IMG/VR virus record: IMGVR_UViG_3300022602_002157
Location: 13,383 to 77,382 of that record
DNA from: a virus
Length of the DNA stretch: 64,000 bases
Strand: one strand, 5' to 3'
Position numbers and translations under genes: made by a program. The notes under the pieces are model-generated. The model had not been told where the DNA came from. It made no database searches and saw only the letters and a list, made by a program, of their open reading frames with translations. The first letter of the stretch is position 1, and every line of letters starts with the position of its first letter. Shown here one piece after another: positions 46,701 through 61,555 of the stretch.

Positions 46701-47052
46701 TAGTCGTAGTAAGTATTTACAAGTTAACAGCGGTACGTCTAGTACCTATGTCAATAATTATGGCGGCAGTGTTGGAGTAGGCAATATGCGCTATAATACA
46801 AGTACACAAACTATGGAAGTGTATGATGGTACAACTTGGATTATGTTGAATATGAGTTATGCAGATGTTAACTTATCCGGTGAAGCAGAAAGTTTGCTTG
46901 ACTGGGTGCAGAAAAAGCGTGATGAAGAGTTTAGGCGTCAAGCACTAGCAGAAAGTAATCCTGCTATCAAAGACTTAGTAGAACAGATTAAAGAAAAAGA
47001 AGATCAAATCAAAATGATACAAACATTAATTAAAAAAGAGGTAACTGCTTGA
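46684..47052 (+). CDS. Hypothetical protein
   Basis: SD AAGGA; 122 aa. Confidence 0.7.
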   Translation: MLRGINSRSKYLQVNSGTSSTYVNNYGGSVGVGNMRYNTSTQTMEVYDGTTWIMLNMSYADVNLSGEAESLLDWVQKKRDEEFRRQALAESNPAIKDLVEQIKEKEDQIKMIQTLIKKEVTA

Positions 47053-48596
47053 ATCAAATAGACTTATCAGCACAGCACAAACCGGACTGGGCATTATTCT
47101 TACCCGCAGTCAGTAGTTTCTTTATTACTGGCTTGGGTAAACAACGTGAAGGTGAAAATTATTTTGACCAAACACGTATTCCTGCAGGCTTCAATGGTGA
47201 TGTTGAATGCTTGAACTTTTTGAATAGCAAGCAAGGTCTATACACTTATAAGTGGGGTTTGTATAGTGCAGGTCATGCCAACTTAGATACAACTGTTGAT
47301 GACCATGCTGAAAGTATTATTCGTAAACGTGAAAGTGGTACTTTCATGTTGGGTGATAGTGGTGGTTTTCAGATTCTTAAGTGTCAATGGCCTGCTGATT
47401 GGAAGGATCCCAACTGCCCACGTGCTATGAAAAAGCGTCAGCAAGTATTGAAGTGGATGGACACATACATGGACTATGGTATGTGTTTAGATATCCCTTC
47501 ACAATCATTAAGCACGTTTCATATCAAGGATCCAAAGACTGGTAAAAGTGCGCATGGTATCAGTACAATTGAGGAAGCGATTACTGCTACACATATTAAC
47601 AACGAATACTTTATTAAGAATCGTACAGGTGAATGTAAGTTCTTAAATGTTCTTCAAGGTCGCAATCACAGTCAAAGTGATAGTTGGTATGAAGAAATGA
47701 AAAAGTATTGTGACCCAAACATCTATCCCGACAATCATTTCAATGGTTGGGCATTTGGGGGTCAGAACAAGATTGACGTTGAATTGATGTTGAATCGACT
47801 TGTTGGCATTATCCACGATGGTTTGTTACAAGAAGGTAAGCATGACTTGATTCACTGTTTGGGTGTAAGCATTATGGAATATGCTGTATTGTTTACAGAT
47901 ATTCAACGTGCTATTCGAAAGTATCACAATCCAAAACTACAAATTACTTTTGACTGCGCAAGCCCATTCTTTAGTGCGGCTAAAGGTCTTGCATACTTTA
48001 ACAACAGTATTGAGCATGGCAAGAAATGGTCATACAGTATGGAAAAGACTGCTGAAAACAAAAACTATGCTAATGACAATCGCAAGTTTAGTGATGCAGT
48101 ATTGGCTGATGGTATTCACGATGTGTTTACTGATAGCCCAATTACTGACCGTATGATGGTTAAGGACCTTTGCTATCGTGGTCATGGCTTTATCAACCAG
48201 CAAGGTAAAGAAACCAAAACTAGTTGGGATACATTAAGTTATACACTATTGCAAGCACATAATGTTTATCAACACATTACTGCTGTGCAGGAAGCCAATC
48301 GTAAATATGAAACGGGTATTATGCCCAAGATGGTTATGAGCAAGTTTGATGATAATCATTTTGGTAGTATCATTGAAGAAATCTTTAGCCTAAACGATAG
48401 AAAAAAGAGTTTGGATTTGATTAAGCAACACTCAAGTCTTTGGACACAAATGCAAAGTGGTAGTCAAGGATTTAGTGGTAAGCGTACTGTTAATGCAATG
48501 ACCATGTTTGATCAACTGTTTGCCGTTGAACAAGAACCTGAACAGGATGAAGTCATTGAAGATGCAGACGATGAAATGGCTAATCTCATTGAATAA
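47049..48596 (+). CDS. dpdA: TGT-family DNA 7-deazaguanine transglycosylase (DpdA-like)
   Basis: DSGGFQ, LDIP, VLQG, GWAFGG, HCLG and TFD TGT-type motifs; clustered with folE/queD/queE. Confidence 0.75.
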   Translation: MNQIDLSAQHKPDWALFLPAVSSFFITGLGKQREGENYFDQTRIPAGFNGDVECLNFLNSKQGLYTYKWGLYSAGHANLDTTVDDHAESIIRKRESGTFMLGDSGGFQILKCQWPADWKDPNCPRAMKKRQQVLKWMDTYMDYGMCLDIPSQSLSTFHIKDPKTGKSAHGISTIEEAITATHINNEYFIKNRTGECKFLNVLQGRNHSQSDSWYEEMKKYCDPNIYPDNHFNGWAFGGQNKIDVELMLNRLVGIIHDGLLQEGKHDLIHCLGVSIMEYAVLFTDIQRAIRKYHNPKLQITFDCASPFFSAAKGLAYFNNSIEHGKKWSYSMEKTAENKNYANDNRKFSDAVLADGIHDVFTDSPITDRMMVKDLCYRGHGFINQQGKETKTSWDTLSYTLLQAHNVYQHITAVQEANRKYETGIMPKMVMSKFDDNHFGSIIEEIFSLNDRKKSLDLIKQHSSLWTQMQSGSQGFSGKRTVNAMTMFDQLFAVEQEPEQDEVIEDADDEMANLIE

Positions 48597-48662: not shown

Positions 48663-48845
48663 ATGTACAAAGAACGAATCAGTAAATTACAAGATATGTT
48701 TGAAGATTTAACCAAACGTTCGAACGAAGGTAGCGACTTAGCCAATGCTGAACGTGCAAAGGTCTATGAGGAATTAGTTAGACTTAGACGTTTGCAATGG
48801 GAACACGATCATGACACGGTGAATTTTGATGAACACGATTACTAA
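48663..48845 (+). CDS. Small hypothetical protein
   Basis: GGAG SD; 60 aa. Confidence 0.65.
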   Translation: MYKERISKLQDMFEDLTKRSNEGSDLANAERAKVYEELVRLRRLQWEHDHDTVNFDEHDY

Positions 48846-49287
48846 TAGAAAACAAACACTTATGGAAACACGTAATAGAATTAAAGAACAGGCTAAACGC
48901 ATGATCTTTGTTACCTTTCAGAAAGAAGGTATTCATTGTTATCCGGCAGCCGCATCAGACTCTAATCTGTCAACAGGTGATGAATATGATGTTAGTTTCT
49001 TAGCAACTCCACATCGTCACATTTTTCACTTTAACGTGGCGATTGAAGTATTTCACAACGATAGGGATATTGAGTTTATTCAATTTAAGAGATGGCTTGA
49101 GAATCAATACTCTCAGGGCATTCTTGAATTGAATTTCAAAAGTTGTGAAATGATTAGTGATGACCTCTATGAAGTTATTGCTAGTCGATATCCCGAACGT
49201 AACATTGAAATCACTGTAAGCGAAGACGGTGAGAACGGTGCTACGATTTATTATTATACTCACAAACCTCAACTTATTAGCATTTAA
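48829..49287 (+). CDS. dpdL: QueD-paralog T-fold protein, DpdL-like (proposed CDG decarboxylase)
   Basis: LATPHRHIF matches LxxxHRHxF, which replaces the QueD CxxxHGH. Also DIEF, SCE and EDGENG. Confidence 0.7.
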   Translation: MNTITNRKQTLMETRNRIKEQAKRMIFVTFQKEGIHCYPAAASDSNLSTGDEYDVSFLATPHRHIFHFNVAIEVFHNDRDIEFIQFKRWLENQYSQGILELNFKSCEMISDDLYEVIASRYPERNIEITVSEDGENGATIYYYTHKPQLISI

Positions 49288-50308: not shown

Positions 50309-51064
50309 ATGCGTAAAATAGTTTTGATTACTGGGGGATTCGATCCAATTCACAGTGGGCATTTAAATTACATTAAGTCTGCTAGTGAATTGGGCGATAC
50401 CCTTGTCGTAGGAGTCAATAGCGATGAATGGTTGACCCGTAAAAAAGGTCGACCATTTATGCCATTAGATGAACGAATGGCAATTGTTGAATCATTAAGA
50501 CATGTAGATGCGGCAATACGTTTTAATGATAGTGATGGCAGCAGTAAAAATGCTATAAAAATTGTACGTGAAATGTGGCCCAAAGCAAAAATTGTTTTTG
50601 CCAATGGAGGAGATCGTACTCAAAATAATATTCCAGAAATGGATACTACTGACCAAAACATTGAATTTGTATTTGGTGTTGGTGGCACAAACAAAAAGAA
50701 TAGCAGTAGTTGGATATTAGAAGAATGGAAGAATCCTAAAACCGTTAGACCATGGGGCTGGTATCGTGTTTTAGATGACAAGATTGGTTACAAAGTTAAA
50801 GAACTTGTAATTGAACCGGGTAAGAGTTTAAGTATGCAACGTCACTTTAAACGTAGTGAACATTGGTATATACTTAAGGGTAATTGTGATATTGCAACTG
50901 TATACAATAATGATATAATAGTAATATCTAAAGAGGAAAATGAAACATATAATATTTCGCAAGGTGTTTGGCATCAAGGTCAAAATAATTATTCTGATTA
51001 TTGCCACATACTTGAAGTACAATATGGATCATCTTGCATTGAAGAAGACATTGAGAGAAAATAA
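50309..51064 (+). CDS. Cytidylyltransferase-like domain fused to type II mannose-6-P isomerase-like cupin
   Basis: TGGFDPIHSGH, VGVNSD and NSSS; then RPWG, SMQRHFKRSEHW and EVQYG...EEDIER. Confidence 0.85.
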   Translation: MRKIVLITGGFDPIHSGHLNYIKSASELGDTLVVGVNSDEWLTRKKGRPFMPLDERMAIVESLRHVDAAIRFNDSDGSSKNAIKIVREMWPKAKIVFANGGDRTQNNIPEMDTTDQNIEFVFGVGGTNKKNSSSWILEEWKNPKTVRPWGWYRVLDDKIGYKVKELVIEPGKSLSMQRHFKRSEHWYILKGNCDIATVYNNDIIVISKEENETYNISQGVWHQGQNNYSDYCHILEVQYGSSCIEEDIERK

Positions 51065-52251
51065 TGCGTAAACTATACTACATGGGCTTAGAGCCTTACA
51101 AAGACAGATACACACTTCAATTAACTGATTGGAACGTTGAAGTATTCAAACGCCGTGGCATTGATTATGTTATCGTTCCCGGTGACACACTTGACAACAG
51201 TAAAAGTATTGTTACTGGTCAAGTATTAGATGCACATGGTCGTAGTTATTTTGGCATGAGCCAAATGATGAACTTAGTTAAATTGATGAAAGAAGGGGAG
51301 GTCACTAGTGATGATGTTATATATTTTGAAGATATGTTTCAGCCCGGAATCGAAAGCCTTCCTTACATTCTTAATCAGGTTACTGACGATATGCGTCCTA
51401 GGGTATTTGTCCGTTGTCTTGCTCAGTCAATTGATCCAGATGATTTCGTACATGTATGGGGCATGAGCAAATGGATGGGCTTGTACGAAAAGATGGTCAA
51501 TGAATTTGTTGATGGCGTACTTGCAAGTAACGAAGAAATGGTAATGCACATGAAGATTGCAGGCTGGGAAGCACCAATCTATAATATCAGTGGGTTAGCA
51601 TTTGGTAAAGAAGAAGTAAGACGCAGAGTTCTTGATAGTGGTCAAGACATTAAATTGTTTGATGAACGTGCTATGCGTGTTGCATTTGCCGCACGTTGGG
51701 ATCAAGAAAAGCAACCAGACTTTTACATGGACTTGATTGACAAGTGGAATAACTTGTATCCAAATTCAGGTGTAGAGTTTGCTGTATTCAGTGGTAGTAC
51801 ATTACGTAGTAATAACAGTAGTTACATGGAACGCACTAACAAAATGCGTGACGAAGGTACACTTAAAGTCTATGAAAACTTAGACAAAACTAATTACTAT
51901 CTAATGTTGAATGACACCCGTGTATTGTTTAACTGTGCATTACAAGACTGGGTAAGTAATACTGTAAGCGAGGCTGATGCATTGCGTTGTAATGTGTTAT
52001 ATCCTGCTTATCGTAGTTTCCCTGAAACTTTCAGTAATGATCCTGAACGATTGTATATCCCATGGTCATTAGATGATGCAATTGCAAAGTTGCATAAACT
52101 ATTAACTGTTCAACATCCAAATATTGACAAGATCAGTACTCACACAGATGGAACCATTGATCGTATTTGTAATATTTTAGAAGGTCGTGGTCAACATTTG
52201 TTGCGTATGGATACTGATTATCGCAAGCACACAAAAGAAAGAAAGTATTAA
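51064..52251 (+). CDS. GT-B fold glycosyltransferase
   Basis: [11 protein letters not shown], and a C-terminal [11 protein letters not shown]...YP..RSFPE donor-binding-like region. Confidence 0.7.
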
Positions 52252-52252
52252 A

Positions 52253-53326
52253 ATGCGTATTGAAAATGAAGTTAAGTTAGATTTTAGTGACGTATTGATT
52301 CGTCCAAAGCGTAGCACATTGGTTAGCCGTAAAGAAGTTTTCTTAAATAGAACTTATAAGTTTAAGCATAGTCAAAATGAATACACCGGCATTCCAATCA
52401 TGGCTGCTAACATGGATGGCGTTGGTACTATTGAAATGAGTACTGAATTGAGTAAGCATGGATTGTTTACGTGTTTAGTAAAAAGTTACAACGTTGAAAA
52501 CTACGCCACTAATGAATTAAATTTTAATAACATAGCAGTTAGTACAGGCACAAGCGACAGGGACTTAAAAAAGTTAAATGAAATTCTATCAATATTTGAT
52601 GAAATCAGATACATTTGTATTGACGTTGCAAATGGTTACAGCGATCATTTTGGTGTTTTTGTTAGTAAGGTACGTGATCTTTGGCCTCTTCATACTATTG
52701 TGGCCGGTAATGTGGTTACTGCTGACATGACACAAGAATTGATTTTAAGAGGAGCAGACATTGTTAAGGTAGGCATTGGCCCCGGTAGTGTATGTACTAC
52801 ACGTATTCAAACTGGGGTAGGCTATCCCCAACTTAGTGCTATCATGGAATGTGCTGATGCCGCACATGGTCTTGGTGGACATATTATTGCTGATGGTGGT
52901 TGCACATGCCCTGGAGACGTTGCTAAGGCGTTTGGGGCTGGTGCGGACTTTGTAATGCTTGGTGGTATGCTTGCTGGTCATGATGAAGGTGGTGGCAAGG
53001 TTATCGAAGAAATGCATGAACTATCTAGACTACAAGAAAACAGTTATGCGCACGATTATGAAATCAAAAAGTTTGTAGAGTTTTATGGTATGAGTAGTGA
53101 TACTGCCATGAACAAGCATCACGGCGGCATTGCTGAATATCGTAGTAGTGAAGGTCGTACTGTGCGTGTACCTTATCGTGGGCCTGTAAAGAATACTGTA
53201 CTAAACATTCTTGGTGGATTGCGTAGTAGTTGCACATATGTTGGTGCTCAATCATTAAAGCAATTAAGTAAATGCACTACCTTTGTTCGTGTAAATAATC
53301 AATACAACAGAGTTTATGCAGGATAA
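52253..53326 (+). CDS. guaC: GMP reductase
   Basis: MRIE...[47 protein letters not shown] and LRS.CTYVGA. Confidence 0.93.
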
Positions 53327-53328
53327 CA

Positions 53329-54099
53329 ATGACAAAGAATGTAAAATGTTTAATTACTGGTGGATGTAGTTTTAGTCAACCTAACAATACTGATATAACT
53401 TGGGTTCATCATTTACAAGATTATATACAACCCGACAAAGTAGTACACACTGGTATAGGAGCGGCTGGTAATGGATTGATCAGTCGTAGAATTATTTCAG
53501 CAGTAACAGAACAACTTAAAACATATAAACCTGATGAAATGTTAGTGGGTATTATGTGGAGTGAGTTTAAAAGGCGTGATTACTACTCAATTGCTGACTT
53601 AGAAACTACCAATACAGCACCTAGACGCTATTACTGGTATAGTAATCCCACGGCAGGATATGTACCTGAAGAGTATTATTGGTATGTTATTAATCCACAT
53701 TGGTCTGATCCTCTTACTACTAAATTCAAAGAAAACTTTTATAATTATGAGGACAGTTTAATTAATTGCTTTGAACATGTATTAAGGGTTCAATGGTTCT
53801 TACAGGCAAATAACATTCCGTATTTTATGACTGAGTTTGATTATAGCGCATTTGATGAATTTCCTTTTGCTAGGAATTGGAAAAATAACGCTGAAATTAA
53901 ATTCCTTTGGGACCAAATTGATAAATCACATTGGTTACCCGTTGAGAATTGTTATCAGTGGTGCAAAGAAAAATCAGGCAAAGAATTTGCTAGACCCCCT
54001 GATCCGCACCCCAGTACAGCACAACATAGAGAATTTGTAAATAAGGTAATAGTGCCCTATTTACTTGAAAAACATATGTTATATGATATAATCGTATAA
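53329..54099 (+). CDS. SGNH/GDSL-like hydrolase paralog
   Basis: GGCSFS, GAAGN, MWS...R and DPHPS...H. Confidence 0.6.
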   Translation: MTKNVKCLITGGCSFSQPNNTDITWVHHLQDYIQPDKVVHTGIGAAGNGLISRRIISAVTEQLKTYKPDEMLVGIMWSEFKRRDYYSIADLETTNTAPRRYYWYSNPTAGYVPEEYYWYVINPHWSDPLTTKFKENFYNYEDSLINCFEHVLRVQWFLQANNIPYFMTEFDYSAFDEFPFARNWKNNAEIKFLWDQIDKSHWLPVENCYQWCKEKSGKEFARPPDPHPSTAQHREFVNKVIVPYLLEKHMLYDIIV

Positions 54100-54102
54100 A
54101 TA
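54065..54102 (+). promoter_or_regulatory. Tandem sigma70-like and T4-late promoters for folE
   Basis: TTGAAA-N16-TATAAT(54087), then TATAAATA (54095-54102). Confidence 0.6.
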
Positions 54103-54164
54103 CTTTTGTAACACAAAGGTTACAACACAATTGACAATTATCCGTGTAAGGAAGGAGAACAATA

Positions 54165-54842
54165 ATGTCATACAATAAAACAAAAACCGATCCAGAATTA
54201 GGACGCAAAGTCCATGAACATCTAGTAAGTGTAGGAGTTGAAACTCCCACATTCAATACTGCATTAGACCGCAAAGACAAAATTGAGTTAATTGAAAAAG
54301 ATTTTGCTCATATTATGCATGTATTAGGTCTAGACCTAAATGATGACAGTTTAATGGAAACACCTAAGCGTGTTGCTAAGATGTATGTTAATGAAATCTT
54401 TTGGGGCTTAGATTATGATGCATTTCCAAAGTGTACGACTGTCGATAACAAGATGCATTACAATGAAATGGTCGTTGAACGCAACGTTAATGTCCAAAGC
54501 AATTGCGAACATCACTTTGTTATCATTGATGGTCTCGCTACTGTGGCATATGTTCCTAAACAGAAAGTCCTCGGACTATCAAAAATTAACCGTATTGTTG
54601 AGTATTTCAGCAAGCGCCCTCAAATCCAAGAGCGACTCACCGAACAAATCTTCCACACTCTCCAATTTATATTGGAGACTGAAGATGTTGCGGTAATGAT
54701 TGACGCACGACACTATTGTGTTAAGTCACGCGGTGTTGAGGATACTGGCAGTTCAACTGTAACTGTTCGTTTAGGCGGCGGATTTAAAAGTGATCCTGCG
54801 GCACGTAATGAATTCTTAAGCATTGCACGTATGGGCAAATGA
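54165..54842 (+). CDS. folE: GTP cyclohydrolase I
   Basis: TPKRVAKM, CEHH, GLSKINR, QIQERLT and HYCVKSRG. Confidence 0.96.
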   Translation: MSYNKTKTDPELGRKVHEHLVSVGVETPTFNTALDRKDKIELIEKDFAHIMHVLGLDLNDDSLMETPKRVAKMYVNEIFWGLDYDAFPKCTTVDNKMHYNEMVVERNVNVQSNCEHHFVIIDGLATVAYVPKQKVLGLSKINRIVEYFSKRPQIQERLTEQIFHTLQFILETEDVAVMIDARHYCVKSRGVEDTGSSTVTVRLGGGFKSDPAARNEFLSIARMGK

Positions 54843-54843
54843 T

Positions 54844-55002
54844 ATGGATTATATCATAGTTTTGATTATCGTAGCATATTCATTTATTAGATTATGGAGT
54901 ATATTGCGTAATCCAAATTGTGGTAGTTGCGGCAAAGAAAAAGCCAAGGGTTGCTGTACACCAGAACCCAAAGAACAAACTATTAAATTTTATAAAAAAT
55001 GA
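54844..55002 (+). CDS. Small TM plus Cys-rich peptide (52 aa; not in the ORF track)
   Basis: MDYIIVLIIVAYSFIRLWSILRNPNCGSCGKEKAKGCC...; starts 2 nt after the folE stop and has an ATGA overlap with the next gene. Confidence 0.65.
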   Translation: MDYIIVLIIVAYSFIRLWSILRNPNCGSCGKEKAKGCCTPEPKEQTIKFYKK

Positions 55003-55463
55003 TATTTAACAAAATTAAAAAACTCAGAGACCAAGGTAAAAAGATAGGTATTACTTTTAGTACCTTTGATTTACTACATGCCGGGCATATTGCTATGCTT
55101 AGTGAGGCAAAGAACCACTGTGATTATTTGATTGCAGGATTACAAACAGACCCAACAATTGATCGTCCTGATACCAAGAATAAACCTATTCAAAGTATTG
55201 TAGAACGTCAAATTCAACTTAGTGCCTGTCGCTATGTTGACGAAGTAGTAGTATATCAAACTGAGCAAGACTTGATTGACTTACTATTAATTTTGCCATT
55301 GAATGTTCGTGTATTGGGTGTTGAATATGAAGGCAAAAAATTCACAGGTGACGAAGCATGTTATCACCGTGGCATCGATATTGTGTTTAACGGTCGTGAT
55401 CATAGTTTCAGTAGTTCAAGTTTACGTAAGCGTGTTGCAGAAGCACAACCTAAGGCAAAATGA
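54999..55463 (+). CDS. Cytidylyltransferase (TagD/RfaE-II-like)
   Basis: TFDLLHAGH, GLQTD, ER...L.ACRYVDEV and SSS.LR. Confidence 0.88.
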   Translation: MIFNKIKKLRDQGKKIGITFSTFDLLHAGHIAMLSEAKNHCDYLIAGLQTDPTIDRPDTKNKPIQSIVERQIQLSACRYVDEVVVYQTEQDLIDLLLILPLNVRVLGVEYEGKKFTGDEACYHRGIDIVFNGRDHSFSSSSLRKRVAEAQPKAK

Positions 55464-55654
55464 TAATGGAAAATTATACTGTAGAAAATAGACTTGCTGA
55501 ATTAATGCAACCTGTTGATCAACAATTGTTTTTGTGTAATGATGGACAGGAAGAATTGTTATTCGCATGTGGTATGCTACAGCGTATTAGAGAAATCTTT
55601 GACGCACAATTAGGCGTGGAAGGTAGAAAACTTATGTTTAAAGATTTGTCATGA
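55460..55654 (+). CDS. Hypothetical protein
   Basis: 64 aa with overlapping start/stop. Confidence 0.65.
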   Translation: MIMENYTVENRLAELMQPVDQQLFLCNDGQEELLFACGMLQRIREIFDAQLGVEGRKLMFKDLS

Positions 55655-55875
55655 TGAATGAGACCAACAAGTTAGACCTACACGGTATAAGACATGAGGA
55701 TGTAAACCGTTTAGTAGAAAACTTTATTCTAATGAATCAAGGAAAAATGCCACTTACAATTGTTTGTGGCAATAGTAATAAAATGATTGAGTTAGTAGAG
55801 GCTACTATTAAACATATTGGTTGCAAAACGTTTGTTCCTAGATATGGTACTATTATTGTTAGGGACTTGTCATGA
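55651..55875 (+). CDS. Stand-alone Smr-like domain protein
   Basis: LDLHG...IVCG. Confidence 0.6.
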   Translation: MMNETNKLDLHGIRHEDVNRLVENFILMNQGKMPLTIVCGNSNKMIELVEATIKHIGCKTFVPRYGTIIVRDLS

Positions 55876-56294
55876 GAATTCTTATCATGGGTTTGCCCGG
55901 TTCAGGCAAAACAACATTAGCGGCCGCTATTGGTGCCCGTTTGTTTTTTAATAAAAAATTTACATGGTTCAATGCCGACGCTATTAGAGAACGATATAAC
56001 GATTGGGATTTTAGTGAAGAAGGACGCATACGTCAAGCAAAACGAATGCGAGAACTTTCTGATAAAGAAATAGAACAGGGTCGATTGGCAATCTGTGATT
56101 TTGTTGCGCCTACTAATGAGATTAGAGATATATTTAACGCAGACTATACAATTTGGCTTGATACCATCCGTGAAGGTCGGTATGCTGATACCAATGCTAT
56201 ATTTGTACCTCCCGAACAATATGATATTCGTGTTACAGAACAAAACGCAGAATATTGGGCAGAAGTTATTACACAGGATCTTTTAAAAAGGTAA
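55872..56294 (+). CDS. Adenylylsulfate kinase-like P-loop kinase (short)
   Basis: GLPGSGKTT, NADAIR, FSEEGR..Q..R and FVAP. Confidence 0.7.
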   Translation: MRILIMGLPGSGKTTLAAAIGARLFFNKKFTWFNADAIRERYNDWDFSEEGRIRQAKRMRELSDKEIEQGRLAICDFVAPTNEIRDIFNADYTIWLDTIREGRYADTNAIFVPPEQYDIRVTEQNAEYWAEVITQDLLKR

Positions 56295-56327
56295 ATAAAG
56301 ATAGCGGTCTTTTGGCATCATTCCCGC

Positions 56328-56356
56328 TTTACAAATTCTGCTGCCTATGCTATAAT
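56328..56356 (+). promoter_or_regulatory. sigma70-like promoter inside the structured queD leader
   Basis: TTTACA(56328)-N17-TATAAT(56351) with TG. An upstream TAAATA lies at 56292-56297. Confidence 0.6.
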
Positions 56357-56373
56357 TAACATAGGAGATAAAA

Positions 56374-56880
56374 ATGGCAACTAATCAATCAGTACAATAC
56401 AAGTACACAAGTACAAAAGAGTACGTAAATCAATTCCCATGCGCTTATCGTCAATGGCGTGCAGACAGTCATTGTAATTTGATTCATGGATATTCATTTA
56501 GTTTTAAATTTTACTTTGGAACTAATGACTTAGACGTTCGCAATTGGGCGGCTGACTATGGCGGTCTTAAAGAACTCAAAGGACTACTTGAAGACCAATT
56601 CGATCATACACTACTTGTAGCAGAAGATGATCCAGACCTTGAAACATTTAAGTTGTTACAAGAAAAGAAAATGGCTAAACTTACTATTCTTCCACGCTTA
56701 GGCTGTGAGAGTTTAGCAGACATGTTATACAAATATATCAATGGAGTTTATATTCCTGATATGTGGGGACCAAGTGAGGCTGCAAGACTTTGGTGTTATC
56801 GTGTAGAAGTACGTGAAACACAAAGTAACATGGCTTATCGTGAAGGGCATCGTGAATGGAATGAGGATTTATTGTCATGA
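56374..56880 (+). CDS. queD: 6-carboxy-5,6,7,8-tetrahydropterin synthase
   Basis: [20 protein letters not shown] and VRET..N.A; folE/queE context. Confidence 0.85.
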
Positions 56881-57080
56881 AATTTAAGTTAGGCGATATG
56901 GTTAAGAAGGTTTCTGGGTCACAATGGCATGGCACAATTGTTGGAACATACTCAACTGAACTAACTCCAGAGGGTTATGCAGTTGAAAGTTATACTGAAA
57001 AGGGTTCAGTGCAGATTTATCCTGCAAAGGCTCTTGAACTTTGGAATGTTGATGAAAAGACTTTGGAGAATTTGGGCTAA
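56877..57080 (+). CDS. dfrB: R67/DfrB-type (type II) dihydrofolate reductase homolog
   Basis: [52 protein letters not shown] aligns without gaps to the R67 SH3 core ([50 protein letters not shown]). VQIY is intact. Confidence 0.88.
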
Positions 57081-57216
57081 AGCCCTAGGTGAAAAATCAG
57101 GCAATACAGATAAAGAATCAGATCGTATTGCCTGTATTAGAACAGCAATTGTGTTATCCTACATCATAACAAATTGTTTTATTGTAGCAGGCGTAGTGAG
57201 GCATTGGAATGGTTAG
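57052..57216 (+). CDS. Small membrane protein
   Basis: [15 protein letters not shown]...[24 protein letters not shown]. Confidence 0.65.
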
Positions 57217-57700
57217 AAAAGTTTGGTATTCAGATGAAACTGTAAATGGGTTTATACATTACATTATTAGAAAAATGTCTATGGATAACTATAAGCCTGA
57301 TTATGTAGTGGGTATTAATCGTGGTGGACTAGTCCCTGCATTAAAGATTAGTCACTATCTAAACGTTCCAATGCACACACTTAATGTTAGTTTGCGTGAT
57401 AACATAGATACAGAAAGTAACTGTTGGATGGCAGAAGATGCATTCAATGGTAAAAATATTCTTATTGTTGATGATATCAATGACACAGGTGCTACATTAA
57501 ATTGGATTAAAAATGACTGGCAAACAAGTTGTATGCCACTTGATAATAAATGGGATACTGTTTGGCATAACAATGTTAAGTTTGCAGTTGCCGTAGATAA
57601 TCAGTCCAGTGACTTTGAAATAGATTACGAAGGTACAACTATCAACAAAATGGAAGAAGATGTTTGGGTAATCTTTCCTTGGGAAGAATGGTGGAAATAA
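57209..57700 (+). CDS. Type I purine phosphoribosyltransferase (Gpt/Hpt-like)
   Basis: VGINRGG, PRPP-binding loop ILIVDDINDTGAT and WVIFPWE. Confidence 0.88.
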   Translation: MVRKVWYSDETVNGFIHYIIRKMSMDNYKPDYVVGINRGGLVPALKISHYLNVPMHTLNVSLRDNIDTESNCWMAEDAFNGKNILIVDDINDTGATLNWIKNDWQTSCMPLDNKWDTVWHNNVKFAVAVDNQSSDFEIDYEGTTINKMEEDVWVIFPWEEWWK

Positions 57701-57703
57701 CTA

Positions 57704-57732
57704 TTGACAATAGTAATTGATTATCATATAAT
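57704..57732 (+). promoter_or_regulatory. Consensus sigma70 promoter
   Basis: TTGACA-N17-TATAAT, an exact match. Confidence 0.85.
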
Positions 57733-57751
57733 CACAATAGAGGTATAATTT

Positions 57752-57910
57752 ATGTCAACGTTTTTAAGTTTGCTTGGGGACTTCATCAATTTTATTTTTG
57801 GTGTTGCGCTTCTAGCCTTTTCAGTTTGGTTCATGTATGGTATCTATCTAATTCAAAAGGATAGAGACATTGCACGTAAGAAAGCAAAAGATGAATATAA
57901 AAATCAGTGA
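57752..57910 (+). CDS. Small single-TM protein (52 aa; not in the ORF track)
   Basis: GAGG SD; MSTFLSLLGDFINFIFGVALLAFSVWFMYGIYLIQKDRD... Confidence 0.7.
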   Translation: MSTFLSLLGDFINFIFGVALLAFSVWFMYGIYLIQKDRDIARKKAKDEYKNQ

Positions 57911-58724
57911 ACTGTTTTACAGTATACAAGGGGAAGGTCGCTACATGGGCGTGCCTTCTGTCTTTTTAAGAACATATGGTTGCAATTTTACATGCAGTGG
58001 CTTTGGTATGCCCCGTGGTCTACTATCTAATGAAAGGAATAATATAAATGCAAGAGATTATAAGCAATATAAGGATCTTCCCCTTGTTAGTACCGGCTGC
58101 GATAGTTACGCTAGTTGGGATCCTAGGTTCAAACATCTTTCACCGTTTCTTACGACAGAGGCAATTGCGCAAGCAATCGTTGAACAACTCCCAAACAAAG
58201 AATGGCGGGACGAACATTTAGTCATCACAGGTGGCGAGCCACTACTAGGTTGGCAACGTGCATATCCTGAACTACTTGATCATCCATTGATGGATGGTTT
58301 AACTGAGATCACATTTGAGACAAATGGCACTCAAAAACTAAATCCAAAGTTTGCTGATTACTTGCGTGACTGGAACAAAGTAGGTCGTGAAATTACATTT
58401 AGTGTAAGTGCTAAACTGCCTGGCAGCGGTGAGAGTTGGGAAGATGCAATCAAGCCAGAAGTTGTAGCAAGTTATGAAGATGTTGGTACAGCATATTTGA
58501 AGTTTGTAGTAGCGACTGATCGTGATATGGTTTATGCTGACATGGCAGTACATGAATATCGCAAAGCAGGTTTCACAGGTCATGTATACTTAATGCCAGT
58601 TGGTGGTGTTGAAAGTGTTTATAACTTAAACGCAAAGAATGTCGCAATGGCTGCGTTACAACGTGGATATCGTTATAGTGATAGACTTCAGGTACCTCTT
58701 TTCCGCAACGCTTGGGGAACTTGA
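57891..58724 (+). CDS. queE: 7-carboxy-7-deazaguanine synthase (radical SAM)
   Basis: ISELFYSIQGEG, FLRTYGCNFTC...CDS, TGGEP, ETNGT and SDRLQ. Confidence 0.92.
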   Translation: MNIKISELFYSIQGEGRYMGVPSVFLRTYGCNFTCSGFGMPRGLLSNERNNINARDYKQYKDLPLVSTGCDSYASWDPRFKHLSPFLTTEAIAQAIVEQLPNKEWRDEHLVITGGEPLLGWQRAYPELLDHPLMDGLTEITFETNGTQKLNPKFADYLRDWNKVGREITFSVSAKLPGSGESWEDAIKPEVVASYEDVGTAYLKFVVATDRDMVYADMAVHEYRKAGFTGHVYLMPVGGVESVYNLNAKNVAMAALQRGYRYSDRLQVPLFRNAWGT

Positions 58725-59479
58725 TGCATCGATTGTTTGCGTTTGGTTGTAGTTTCACACAATTTTATTGGCCTACATGGGCTGATATACTAGGTCATAG
58801 TTATGATTATTTTGAAAACTGGGGCTTAGTTGGCGCAGGCAATTTATACATTTCAAGTGCTGTAGCAGAAGCCTCAGTCAGACACAACTTTACAAAAGAC
58901 GATACCATAATGATCATGTGGTCTAACGTAATGCGTGAAGACCGTTACACCGATAGATGGCTCAACGTGGGCAGTATCTATAATCAAAATATTTACAACA
59001 AAGAGTTTGTTAGAGATTTTGTAACTATTCGTGGATGTTATATTAGAGACTTAGCACAGATTCAGTTAACAACACAATTGTTAGAAAACATAGGTTGTAA
59101 CTATGAATACATGAGCATGGTTGATTTAACTAATCCCAATCAATACGAGAATTTAGACGCATCTGAAATGATAGAAGATTCTTTGAATCTATACAAGAAT
59201 ACCTTAGACAAATTCAAACCCAGTGTACATAAAACTGTTTTTAATAATGATTGGTATAGTAGAAAAATAAATGGAAAAACAAGAGTAGACTTACATTCTA
59301 CTCCATTAGAGCATTTAGAATACCTTGATAAAGTTTTACCAAACAGTGTAGATATTTCAACAAGACAATGGGTAGAAAAGGTAAATACAGATGTGTTGAA
59401 TTTCTTAAAAGACAATGATAAGGTGTACACCTACAATGGGTGGAATAACACTAGCAATTTGCCTAAACATAGATTATAA
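58724..59479 (+). CDS. SGNH/GDSL-like hydrolase paralog
   Basis: FGCSFT, WADIL, GAGN, MWS..RED and H.TP.EH. Confidence 0.6.
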   Translation: MHRLFAFGCSFTQFYWPTWADILGHSYDYFENWGLVGAGNLYISSAVAEASVRHNFTKDDTIMIMWSNVMREDRYTDRWLNVGSIYNQNIYNKEFVRDFVTIRGCYIRDLAQIQLTTQLLENIGCNYEYMSMVDLTNPNQYENLDASEMIEDSLNLYKNTLDKFKPSVHKTVFNNDWYSRKINGKTRVDLHSTPLEHLEYLDKVLPNSVDISTRQWVEKVNTDVLNFLKDNDKVYTYNGWNNTSNLPKHRL

Positions 59480-59747: not shown

Positions 59748-60224
59748 ATGGCTATTTGGACAATTAAACCCGCATGGAAGAAATCACTTATTGAACGCAA
59801 CTATCTAACTAAGGGTGACAACACCGTTATGATTGAGACAGGTTGGCGTTGGGGTGAGTTTACTGTTGAAACAGAAGACGATAACCCTCCTGTACTAGAA
59901 CCAGGTGTTGATCTATATAACTGTGACTACGATGTTGAACTAGTTGAAACAAGCGATGGCTGTTGGGAAGAAGTTGATAGTGATGAATGTGACGAAGAAA
60001 CACAAGAATGGCTAGAAGAATTCTTAGAAGAAAACAGTTGGCTTGATTTAGAAGAGCATGGATGGATTCAAGATGAATGTGAAATGATTATTGACTGTGA
60101 TATCATTATTGAAGACGAAGACGGTAATGTTGTAGAACAGCCACAATCAGAAACACCTGATGAAGTTTATGAAGAACCAGCAACACTAACCCCTAAAGCA
60201 CCTTGGCCTTTTGATACAAAATGA
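59748..60224 (+). CDS. Acidic hypothetical protein
   Basis: AGGAG SD; D/E-rich; ends WPF. Confidence 0.75.
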   Translation: MAIWTIKPAWKKSLIERNYLTKGDNTVMIETGWRWGEFTVETEDDNPPVLEPGVDLYNCDYDVELVETSDGCWEEVDSDECDEETQEWLEEFLEENSWLDLEEHGWIQDECEMIIDCDIIIEDEDGNVVEQPQSETPDEVYEEPATLTPKAPWPFDTK

Positions 60225-61555
60225 AAACATACACTCGCAGAATTGGGTTCCTAGTCAGTTATCAAACACTAATACCCCATGGGGGTATTGGACAATTCAC
60301 TAAAAGTTTTTGTGAATTGATGGATGAACATAACATTAAAGTTGATATCATAACTGACAAAGAACCCAAGGATAATGAGTTTATTAAATCCTTGAAGGCT
60401 AATATCATTGCTCCAGTGGAATCATTGCCATATACAACACATAGCAATATCTTTATGTATGGCGATACATATTGCTATGAACGCATGGCTAACTTCCGTA
60501 ATGCAATTGTAAAGGCACTTGAACATAATTTGTATGATGCGTTTATTTGTAATACATACGAATCTGTTCAAGTGGCAAGCACCATGGGACTCGATGATTG
60601 TATTCAAATAATTGCATATACGCATTTAGAAAGTCAAATTTTTAAAGACACTAAGAATCCATTTCTTGATACAACCAATGAAATGATGCGTAAGCAACTA
60701 GAAATGAGTTCTGTATATGTGGGTACGCAAAGTAAGTTCAATCAATTAGAAATAGACAACGGTGCTTGGCATTTGCCTATTCCTATCAGCGAACGTGGAC
60801 TATTAGAAAAACACAACAAACCACGTGAAGGTGTACTCTTTGTTGGTCGTTGGGAAGAAGGTAAAAATCCTGAACTATTCCTAGAATTAATTGAGCAAAC
60901 ACAGTTACCTGCTAAGGTAATGACTAGCGCAAATGGTGCTAAAAAGTTTGAAGAACGATTAAAGAAGATCGGTGTAACTTATGATATTCGTGTAGGCATC
61001 ATTGGTAAAGAAAAAGTTGACTTTATGACAAGTGCTAGAGTTGCATTCAATCCTAGCACAGTTGAAAGTTATGGTATGGCTTTCTATGAACAACACATTC
61101 AGTTACCTACATTTGTGTTAGAAAATCAACGTTGGACTAAAAACTTTGATGGACATTTTTTCTTTGAGACTAACAAGAAAGATATGGCGTCTGATGTCAA
61201 AGGCGCATACGATATGTTTGCAAACAGTAGTGATTGGTATGTTAAAGGATCATTAGATCATGCTATTGCACAAGAGAATACAGTATTTCACAAATGGAAT
61301 AAATGCTTTAGTGAGTTTAAAACAAAACAAAGCAATTCAAATACTGCGGCAATCTGTAAAGAACATACAGTAAAGCATAGTGATTTTATTAAAGGTTTAT
61401 GTCGTAATGTAATTTGTATTGATGATGTAAGATCGGTTCTTTCAAACAAACATAAATTTACAGTCACTTATACTGATAATGATACATACTTGAGCAAGGA
61501 TCCACATTTTGTTCCCACAGAAGAAGTAAGTGGTGCAGGATTATTTGAATTTTAA
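60221..61555 (+). CDS. GT-B (GT4-like) glycosyltransferase
   Basis: HGGIG, LFVGRWEEGKNP and PSTVESYGMAFYE. Confidence 0.85.
   Translation: MKTYTRRIGFLVSYQTLIPHGGIGQFTKSFCELMDEHNIKVDIITDKEPKDNEFIKSLKANIIAPVESLPYTTHSNIFMYGDTYCYERMANFRNAIVKALEHNLYDAFICNTYESVQVASTMGLDDCIQIIAYTHLESQIFKDTKNPFLDTTNEMMRKQLEMSSVYVGTQSKFNQLEIDNGAWHLPIPISERGLLEKHNKPREGVLFVGRWEEGKNPELFLELIEQTQLPAKVMTSANGAKKFEERLKKIGVTYDIRVGIIGKEKVDFMTSARVAFNPSTVESYGMAFYEQHIQLPTFVLENQRWTKNFDGHFFFETNKKDMASDVKGAYDMFANSSDWYVKGSLDHAIAQENTVFHKWNKCFSEFKTKQSNSNTAAICKEHTVKHSDFIKGLCRNVICIDDVRSVLSNKHKFTVTYTDNDTYLSKDPHFVPTEEVSGAGLFEF

Follow-up and report, generated by a model that had tools for sequence, protein, structure and literature searches.

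An R67-type dihydrofolate reductase gene beside queD in an uncultured freshwater giant phage: a likely stand-in for FolA

What does a dihydrofolate reductase (DHFR) of the R67 type (DfrB) do in a phage? Clinical DfrB genes are integron cassettes, whereas the copy described here sits on a phage contig, between queD and a phosphoribosyltransferase (PRTase) gene, so that both folate metabolism and the pterin chemistry next door have to be considered. Phage homologues of DfrB were described in 2023 (PMC9835603), and Lemay-St-Denis et al. 2025 covered 20 viral homologues, proposing that they contribute to dTMP synthesis in genomes with ThyA but no FolA (PMC12486381). Neither the latter study nor the paper on deazaguanine phages (PMC10516641) mentions a queD or folE context of DfrB.

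The window, i.e., the whole stretch of DNA analyzed, is a 64-kb part of an IMG/VR viral contig that is 77 kb long, with a GC content of 37% and a CheckV completeness of 22%. The nearest cultured relatives of its family B polymerase (PolB) are 42–48% identical and belong to giant phages such as Atu_ph07, Phosso, and the RaK2 group, while megablast of positions 54000–59000 against GenBank phages returns no match. The lineage is one of uncultured freshwater giant phages; its relative G001 has a 367-kb genome that is 100% complete.

The dfrB homologue (56877..57080, plus strand) encodes a 67-residue R67-type (type B) dihydrofolate reductase, an assignment based on the open reading frame, Pfam and PDB matches, conservation, a homotetramer model, and dN/dS. 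The product is the SH3-like core alone and lacks the ~20-residue N-terminal tail of DfrB1. A preliminary description of this DNA had reported a 67-codon frame overlapping queD, and this is confirmed: at the ATGA of 56877..56880 (plus strand), the dfrB ATG (56877–56879) overlaps the TGA stop of the queD-like gene (56878–56880), allowing possible translational coupling. A GAGGA Shine–Dalgarno-like site (56863..56867, plus strand) lies inside queD, 9 nt 5′ of the dfrB ATG. dfrB is a real gene under strong purifying selection, because its median dN/dS is 0.034 at a dS of ~1.1 among 33 distinct DNA versions from related phages (372 pairs).

Between lineages A and B, the dfrB protein is ~91–94% identical, as compared with 62% for PolB and ~49% for the DpdA-like protein encoded in the same region. 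Recent horizontal transfer was considered as the source of this high identity and is ruled out by the saturation of the lineage-to-lineage synonymous sites (pS 0.84); the association is thus old and not a recent hop. The same figures bear on the idea that dfrB is a drifting small cassette gene of little function to the phage, lodged in a hypervariable slot. Its sporadic occurrence among close relatives and its setting among many small lineage-specific ORFs (c6, c8, c46, c105, and c111) would agree with such drift, but a dN/dS this low across lineages saturated at synonymous sites, and a conservation exceeding that of PolB and the DpdA-like protein, make it scarcely credible.

In the 128-nt gap 3′ of dfrB, neither a terminator nor significant RNA structure was found (z −1.35); a 10-bp hairpin at ~57098–57135 has no T-run behind it. 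A 79-codon ORF in another frame (56977–57216) runs over the 3′ half of dfrB and across the gap before the PRTase gene. It encodes a hydrophobic tail and has tblastn matches of 71–83% in loci L003–L006, which may merely be conserved dfrB DNA.

By its sequence, the window protein is a genuine R67/DfrB relative. It matches the Pfam DHFR_2 profile (PF06442) with 76 bits (cut-off, 25 bits; E 2e-21; profile positions 24–75 of 78), in line with the proposal of an R67 homologue carried by a phage rather than an integron, and it also matches PHROG 31682. R67 chains in the PDB (1vie, 2rk1, and others) match at E 5.6e-17, query residues 3–55 aligning without gaps to R67 24–76 (query n = R67 n+21). The SH3-like core is shared, ungapped, with R67/DfrB1 and the clinical DfrB2, B3, B4, and B10, and overall identity to DfrB1–4/10 is 61–67%. 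Residues K32 (K11 in the window protein), W38 (W17), S65-V66-Q67-I68-Y69 (S44–Y48), and P70 are identical to those of R67/DfrB1 and the clinical cassettes, and the protein contains [10 protein letters not shown] and GSVQIYP. The published “cluster I”, which is clinical and active, has the same VQIY motif (PMC12486381). Eight residues are invariant in 60 homologues of 64–91% identity (in window numbering, K11, W17, G43, S44, V45, Q46, Y48, and P49). Against NF000331 (trim_DfrB), the NCBIfam model for AMR naming, the protein scores 85.2 bits, under the cut-off of 137, and so does not count among the named clinical DfrB proteins.

R67 is a homotetramer with two interfaces, and the same assembly is predicted for the window protein. 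A four-copy model reaches an ipSAE of 0.89 (best control, 0.00) with a pLDDT of at least 87, and at least 91% of its contacts recur between runs. In the calibration of the ipSAE mark, which used two copies whereas four are modeled here, 20 of 30 solved homomeric pairs passed, as did 1 of 23 single chains; the pass of the window protein is perhaps in part memory of R67 structures. The modeled contact sets are those of the R67 monomer–monomer (43–51, 56, 58, 66, and 68) and dimer–dimer (32, 35–39, 59, and 61–67) faces. The window protein is probably an active tetramer and would be expected to assemble in this form in vivo.

The alignment to the R67 core is gapless and departs from it in two places exactly as had been claimed, W45 being replaced by T (T24) and H62 by E (E41). 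The sequence GTYST stands at the W45 position in nearly all phage copies, and W45 is unconserved among active homologues (PMC9835603). Because H62 is replaced by E, the pH-dependent histidine switch found at the dimer–dimer face of R67 is missing. A close parallel is DfrB-H4 of Vibrio phage 1.030.O, for which a trimethoprim MIC of >600 µg/ml in E. coli has been reported (PMC9835603). DfrB-H4 is 67% identical to the window protein and carries Y45 and E62 (“[11 protein letters not shown]”); both are phage-borne with a non-Trp residue at 45 and Glu62. However, DfrB-H4 is the C-terminal domain of a 218-residue protein, whereas the window copy is a bare domain. By analogy, the T45 and E62 substitutions are harmless, because DfrB-H4 with Y45/E62 confers trimethoprim resistance. 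On the same grounds, the window DfrB would be insensitive to trimethoprim and would carry out NADPH-dependent reduction of dihydrofolate (DHF).

If the protein is a working DHFR, the question becomes why its gene is found where it is. dfrB lies inside a 7-deazaguanine DNA-modification module with DpdA-like, DpdL-like, folE, queD, and queE genes. FolE, GTP cyclohydrolase I, is encoded at 54165..54842 (plus strand; Pfam, 206 bits). The queD-like T-fold gene (56374..56880, plus strand) encodes a divergent CPH4 synthase type with the motif HCxxxHGY, as judged from Pfam PTPS (57 bits), phrog_2389 (QueD-like, E 6e-37), and alignment; the protein falls under the NCBIfam QueD cut-off and has no match in a PDB sequence search. 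Throughout this phage group, the queD-like proteins have HCxxxHGY where CxxxHGH is canonical, a tyrosine occupying the position of the first zinc-binding histidine of E. coli QueD. They form two subtypes of ~58% mutual identity, located in different loci, and occur in at least 598 viral contigs. The queE-like radical-SAM gene (57891..58724, plus strand), of CDG synthase type, is recognized by phrog_2076 (QueE-like, E 4e-51), its NCBIfam QueE matches being below the cut-off. The purine-type PRTase (57209..57700, plus strand; Pfam Pribosyltran, 55 bits) occupies, together with dfrB, a queD–queE slot that is empty in close relatives.

Farther upstream, a DpdA-like transglycosylase with a TGT fold (47049..48596, plus strand; 515 residues with an acidic tail) is recognized by fold only, as it has no match in Pfam, PHROGs, NCBIfam, or a PDB profile search. 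Its AF2 model (pLDDT 75, pTM 0.80) retrieves exclusively tRNA-guanine transglycosylases among the top 50 Foldseek matches (E ~2e-7), and a GDSGGFQ motif is invariant. The DpdL-like QueD paralogue (48829..49287, plus strand) was identified by alignment, its LATPHRHIF fitting the motif LxxxHRHxF (defined in PMC10516641). Pfam searches for TGT and QueC were negative on the contig and five relatives, and QueC was found neither on the window contig nor in the complete relative G001. A DpdA/DpdL/FolE/QueD/QueE set without QueC is the published pattern giving 7-deazaguanine in DNA (PMC10516641), and the module fits such a phiST-type route. G001 also lacks folP, SHMT, and formyltransferase, which indicates that the phage FolE serves the deaza pathway.

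A GMP reductase gene (52253–53326), likewise located within the module, passes the NCBIfam equivalog with 550 bits. Together with the PRTase, FolE, QueD, and QueE, and in the absence of QueC, it resembles the tubercidin set TubC/A/B, TubE, and TubD (PMC6112128). A tubercidin-like free-nucleotide route, which retains some probability, was set aside once the TGT-fold DpdA-like and the DpdL-like proteins were confirmed. Several genes that relatives have also conserved lie among the deazaguanine genes (54999–55463, 50309–51064, 55872–56294, 51064–52251, and 60221–61555); they encode two cytidylyltransferase-like proteins (heptose-adenylyltransferase-like PHROG), an APS-kinase-like kinase, and two glycosyltransferase-like proteins, which may further decorate the modified base or a glycan.

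A promoter-like site 5′ of queD (TTTACA-17-TATAAT with a TG; 56328..56356, plus strand) matches 11 of 12 positions and is a possible start of a queD–dfrB–PRTase unit; it is weak, the regional total of such sites being no more than expected by chance. A perfect sigma-70 consensus (TTGACA-17-TATAAT) is present at 57704–57732, between the PRTase gene and a small ORF/queE, and because of it queD–dfrB–PRTase and queE are suggested to be separate transcription units.

The setting allows for DfrB being an accessory enzyme of 7-deazaguanine synthesis, which would reduce a pterin intermediate at the expense of NADPH, for instance by re-reducing oxidized 6-carboxy-7,8-dihydropterin to CPH4, the QueE substrate, or would protect the pterin/folate pool under high FolE flux. 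Comparison of 80 viral loci with close DfrB homologues, ~43 of them from related giant phages, lends this some substance. In ~40 of the 43 giant-phage loci, dfrB directly adjoins a deazaguanine-module gene in one of four arrangements: after queD (14 loci), after folE (15 loci), after the DpdA-like gene (6 loci, in the sister lineage B), or before queE. The 4-nt overlap with the queD or folE gene recurs and is common among relatives, and the queD–dfrB pair is retained even where folE is 10–12 kb away. The age of the association, seen in its saturated synonymous sites, and the gene content of G001, by which FolE would feed the deaza pathway, point the same way. Chance and local plasticity may not fully account for the wedging of dfrB against module genes.

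The converse comparison argues against such a role. The queD-type module was found in at least 598 viral contigs, and among the 80 with the most similar QueD (82–92% identical to that of the window, as close as the QueD of DfrB-bearing contigs or closer), none has dfrB within 10 kb. In L196, L199, and L173, queD is followed directly by queE, and L162 has the gene order of the window minus both dfrB and PRTase. Thus, dfrB is an optional insert in the queD–queE slot. A core component would be present wherever the module is; dfrB fails to be so, and two complete module-bearing genomes lack it along with any other kind of DHFR. Nor is a DHFR gene close to queD special to DfrB, since a FolA-type DHFR gene and thyA lie ~4–5 kb from queD in G036. 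No such component is reported for the published deazaguanine phages (PMC10516641), and the GenBank phage records hold no DfrB match in any Cellulophaga phage. The pterin-linked native role that the preliminary description drew from the position of the gene is not supported, as DfrB follows ThyA without FolA instead (see below). QueD chemistry, moreover, requires no external reductant. An accessory role in 7-deazaguanine synthesis is on balance unlikely.

A narrower form of the same idea is that a 7,8-dihydropterin from the deazaguanine route is reduced by DfrB, either alongside DHF or in its place, for example in salvaging air-oxidized CPH4 for QueE. This would explain the long wedging of dfrB against four different module genes, and, if true, it would give the DfrB fold its first physiological substrate other than a folate and shed light on the debated native function of the family. 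A literature search on alternative pterin substrates of R67 yielded nothing usable, and we regard the proposal as distinctly improbable. The coupling to queD is real, yet it is most likely positional, an accident of the cassette slot.

The presence of DfrB follows the type of thymidylate synthase rather than the module. ThyA generates dihydrofolate, whereas ThyX does not. All of the records compared in this respect (G001, G009, G034–G041, and G044) share the queD-type module. Complete G001 (367 kb) encodes DfrB and a ThyA that passes the NCBIfam thymidylate synthase equivalog (353 bits), and has neither ThyX nor FolA; G009 (79 kb, 23% complete) likewise has DfrB and ThyA without FolA, the search of this record covering ThyA and FolA. 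In G036, G040, G041, and G044 (103–217 kb, 20–59% complete), which lack DfrB, ThyA is accompanied by FolA encoded 30 bp to 1.6 kb from thyA. ThyX replaces ThyA in the complete G034 and G037 (364 and 223 kb) as well as in G035 and G039 (286 and 192 kb, 82% and 55% complete), and none of the four has FolA or DfrB. G038 (214 kb, 62% complete) has ThyA with neither DHFR. Overall, FolA occurs in 0 of 26 DfrB-bearing and 4 of 12 DfrB-less records (hypergeometric p ~0.007, with kinship ignored and many records being fragments).

Because DHF is a product of ThyA but not of ThyX, the three states are those expected of a working DHFR that replaces FolA, and since DfrB presence tracks the synthase type and not the module, DfrB most likely replaces FolA as the partner of ThyA. 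The pattern agrees with the published role of viral DfrB as the DHFR of ThyA where FolA is missing (PMC12486381). The surroundings differ, however, in that published viral DfrB genes lie near thyA or DNA methylases (PMC9835603, PMC12486381), whereas the window dfrB is coupled to queD within a giant-phage deazaguanine module, remote from thyA.

Some observations sit less easily with a partnership with ThyA. No thyA is found within 10 kb of dfrB in any of the 80 viral loci; the two genes never adjoin, being 112 kb apart in G001 and 15 kb apart in G009, and it is a deazaguanine-module gene that dfrB abuts in nearly all giant-phage loci. Five small temperate phages with complete genomes encode DfrB but no ThyA, which shows that a phage ThyA does not always accompany it. 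G038 has ThyA and no DHFR, though at 62% completeness. The 77-kb window contig itself, a 22% fragment, carries no ThyA, ThyX, or FolA gene, and we infer that ThyA is encoded elsewhere in the genome of this phage, of which ~22% has been sampled.

The best explanation, which we consider likely, nevertheless remains that the window gene encodes a functional type B DHFR recycling folate for the phage ThyA, a stand-in for FolA whose place beside queD reflects insertion into a plastic slot. In this scheme, inferred from the family, four 67-residue SH3-like protomers would form a ring, the central pore of which takes up NADPH and dihydrofolate. DfrB would then re-reduce the dihydrofolate that the phage ThyA makes with every dTMP, in support of a large AT-rich genome, and would substitute, in this freshwater giant-phage branch, for the FolA that sister phages keep beside thyA. 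The ATGA junction with queD would result from the gene having entered a plastic slot in the region devoted to replication and nucleotide metabolism, with no role in 7-deazaguanine synthesis. The job expected of the window DfrB, re-reduction of DHF for ThyA, is that of T4 Frd, the FolA-type phage DHFR that acts with Td (ThyA). However, the FolA fold is unrelated to that of DfrB and the genes are non-homologous, so the likeness is one of functional replacement and not of family membership.

More widely, uncultured freshwater phages carry DfrB-type genes in abundance, with 160 matches in IMG/VR and 442 clusters in the protein collection. Homologues also occur in 26 GenBank phage records, several already annotated as R67 DHFR, and a 45-kb podovirus carries its DfrB gene among polymerase and RNR genes. 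In small temperate phages and proviruses (L056–L081; e.g., L076:8660–10171 and L070:10203–11366), DfrB is the C-terminal ~57 residues of proteins of 200–500 residues that have no other Pfam domain, keep His62, and are encoded a few kb from lambda-type integrases. Among 68 bacterial genome loci, no folE, queD, queE, or thyA was found near DfrB; the deazaguanine context is thus confined to these giant phages.

Larger proteins of this kind bear on a view argued family-wide by Lemay-St-Denis et al. 2025 for the “principal function” of bacterial homologues (PMC12486381), in which the DfrB fold is mainly a non-catalytic binding or oligomerization module for nucleotides or other ligands and DHF reduction is a side activity. 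The many temperate-phage homologues that end long proteins near integrases would suit it. The window copy, in contrast, is a bare 67-residue domain in which VQIY, K32, and the pore residues are invariant or nearly so under strong purifying selection, and the distribution of ThyA, FolA, and ThyX is that expected of a catalytic DHFR. For the window protein, a mainly non-catalytic function is very improbable.

In a short, weakly resolved tree of 56 columns, the clinical DfrB1/4/10 group with His62-bearing viral and temperate-phage forms (98/94), and the window protein lies outside this clade. The same tree places a cassette from the Pseudomonas aeruginosa plasmid p1160-VIM with the Glu62-type viral copies (98/91). 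This 67-residue DfrB gene (L089; NZ_MF144194, 44515–44718; WP_257792703) is found in a resistance array (aadA1, catB3, and ISPa62), between aadA1 and catB3. Its product carries Glu62 (“TTERGSVQIYP”), as does the window DfrB, but keeps W45 where the latter has T45. Its identity is 72–75% with the window protein and 79% with the viral copies L053–L055, and its nearest relatives are uncultured phage copies, not DfrB1–10. The suggestion that such phages are a reservoir of dfrB is thus sound in a general sense, and already published, but does not extend to a direct source of DfrB1–4/10, whose closest viral relatives in the analyzed set are 70–73% identical, with no viral copy above 73%; the lineage of the window is ~61–62% identical to them.

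The locus reveals no new enzyme, pathway, or mechanism, and the link of dfrB to pterin chemistry most likely goes no further than its position. Phage copies of DfrB, one of them trimethoprim-resistant with E62, and the link to ThyA are already published (PMC9835603, PMC12486381). What the analysis adds is one clinical integron cassette, on p1160-VIM, that is nearest to Glu62-type phage copies, and a clean comparative case for the open debate on the purpose of DfrB outside antibiotic resistance. Within one clade of freshwater giant phages, three states are found, ThyX with no DHFR, ThyA with FolA, and ThyA with DfrB, and they sort as would be expected if DfrB replaces FolA.
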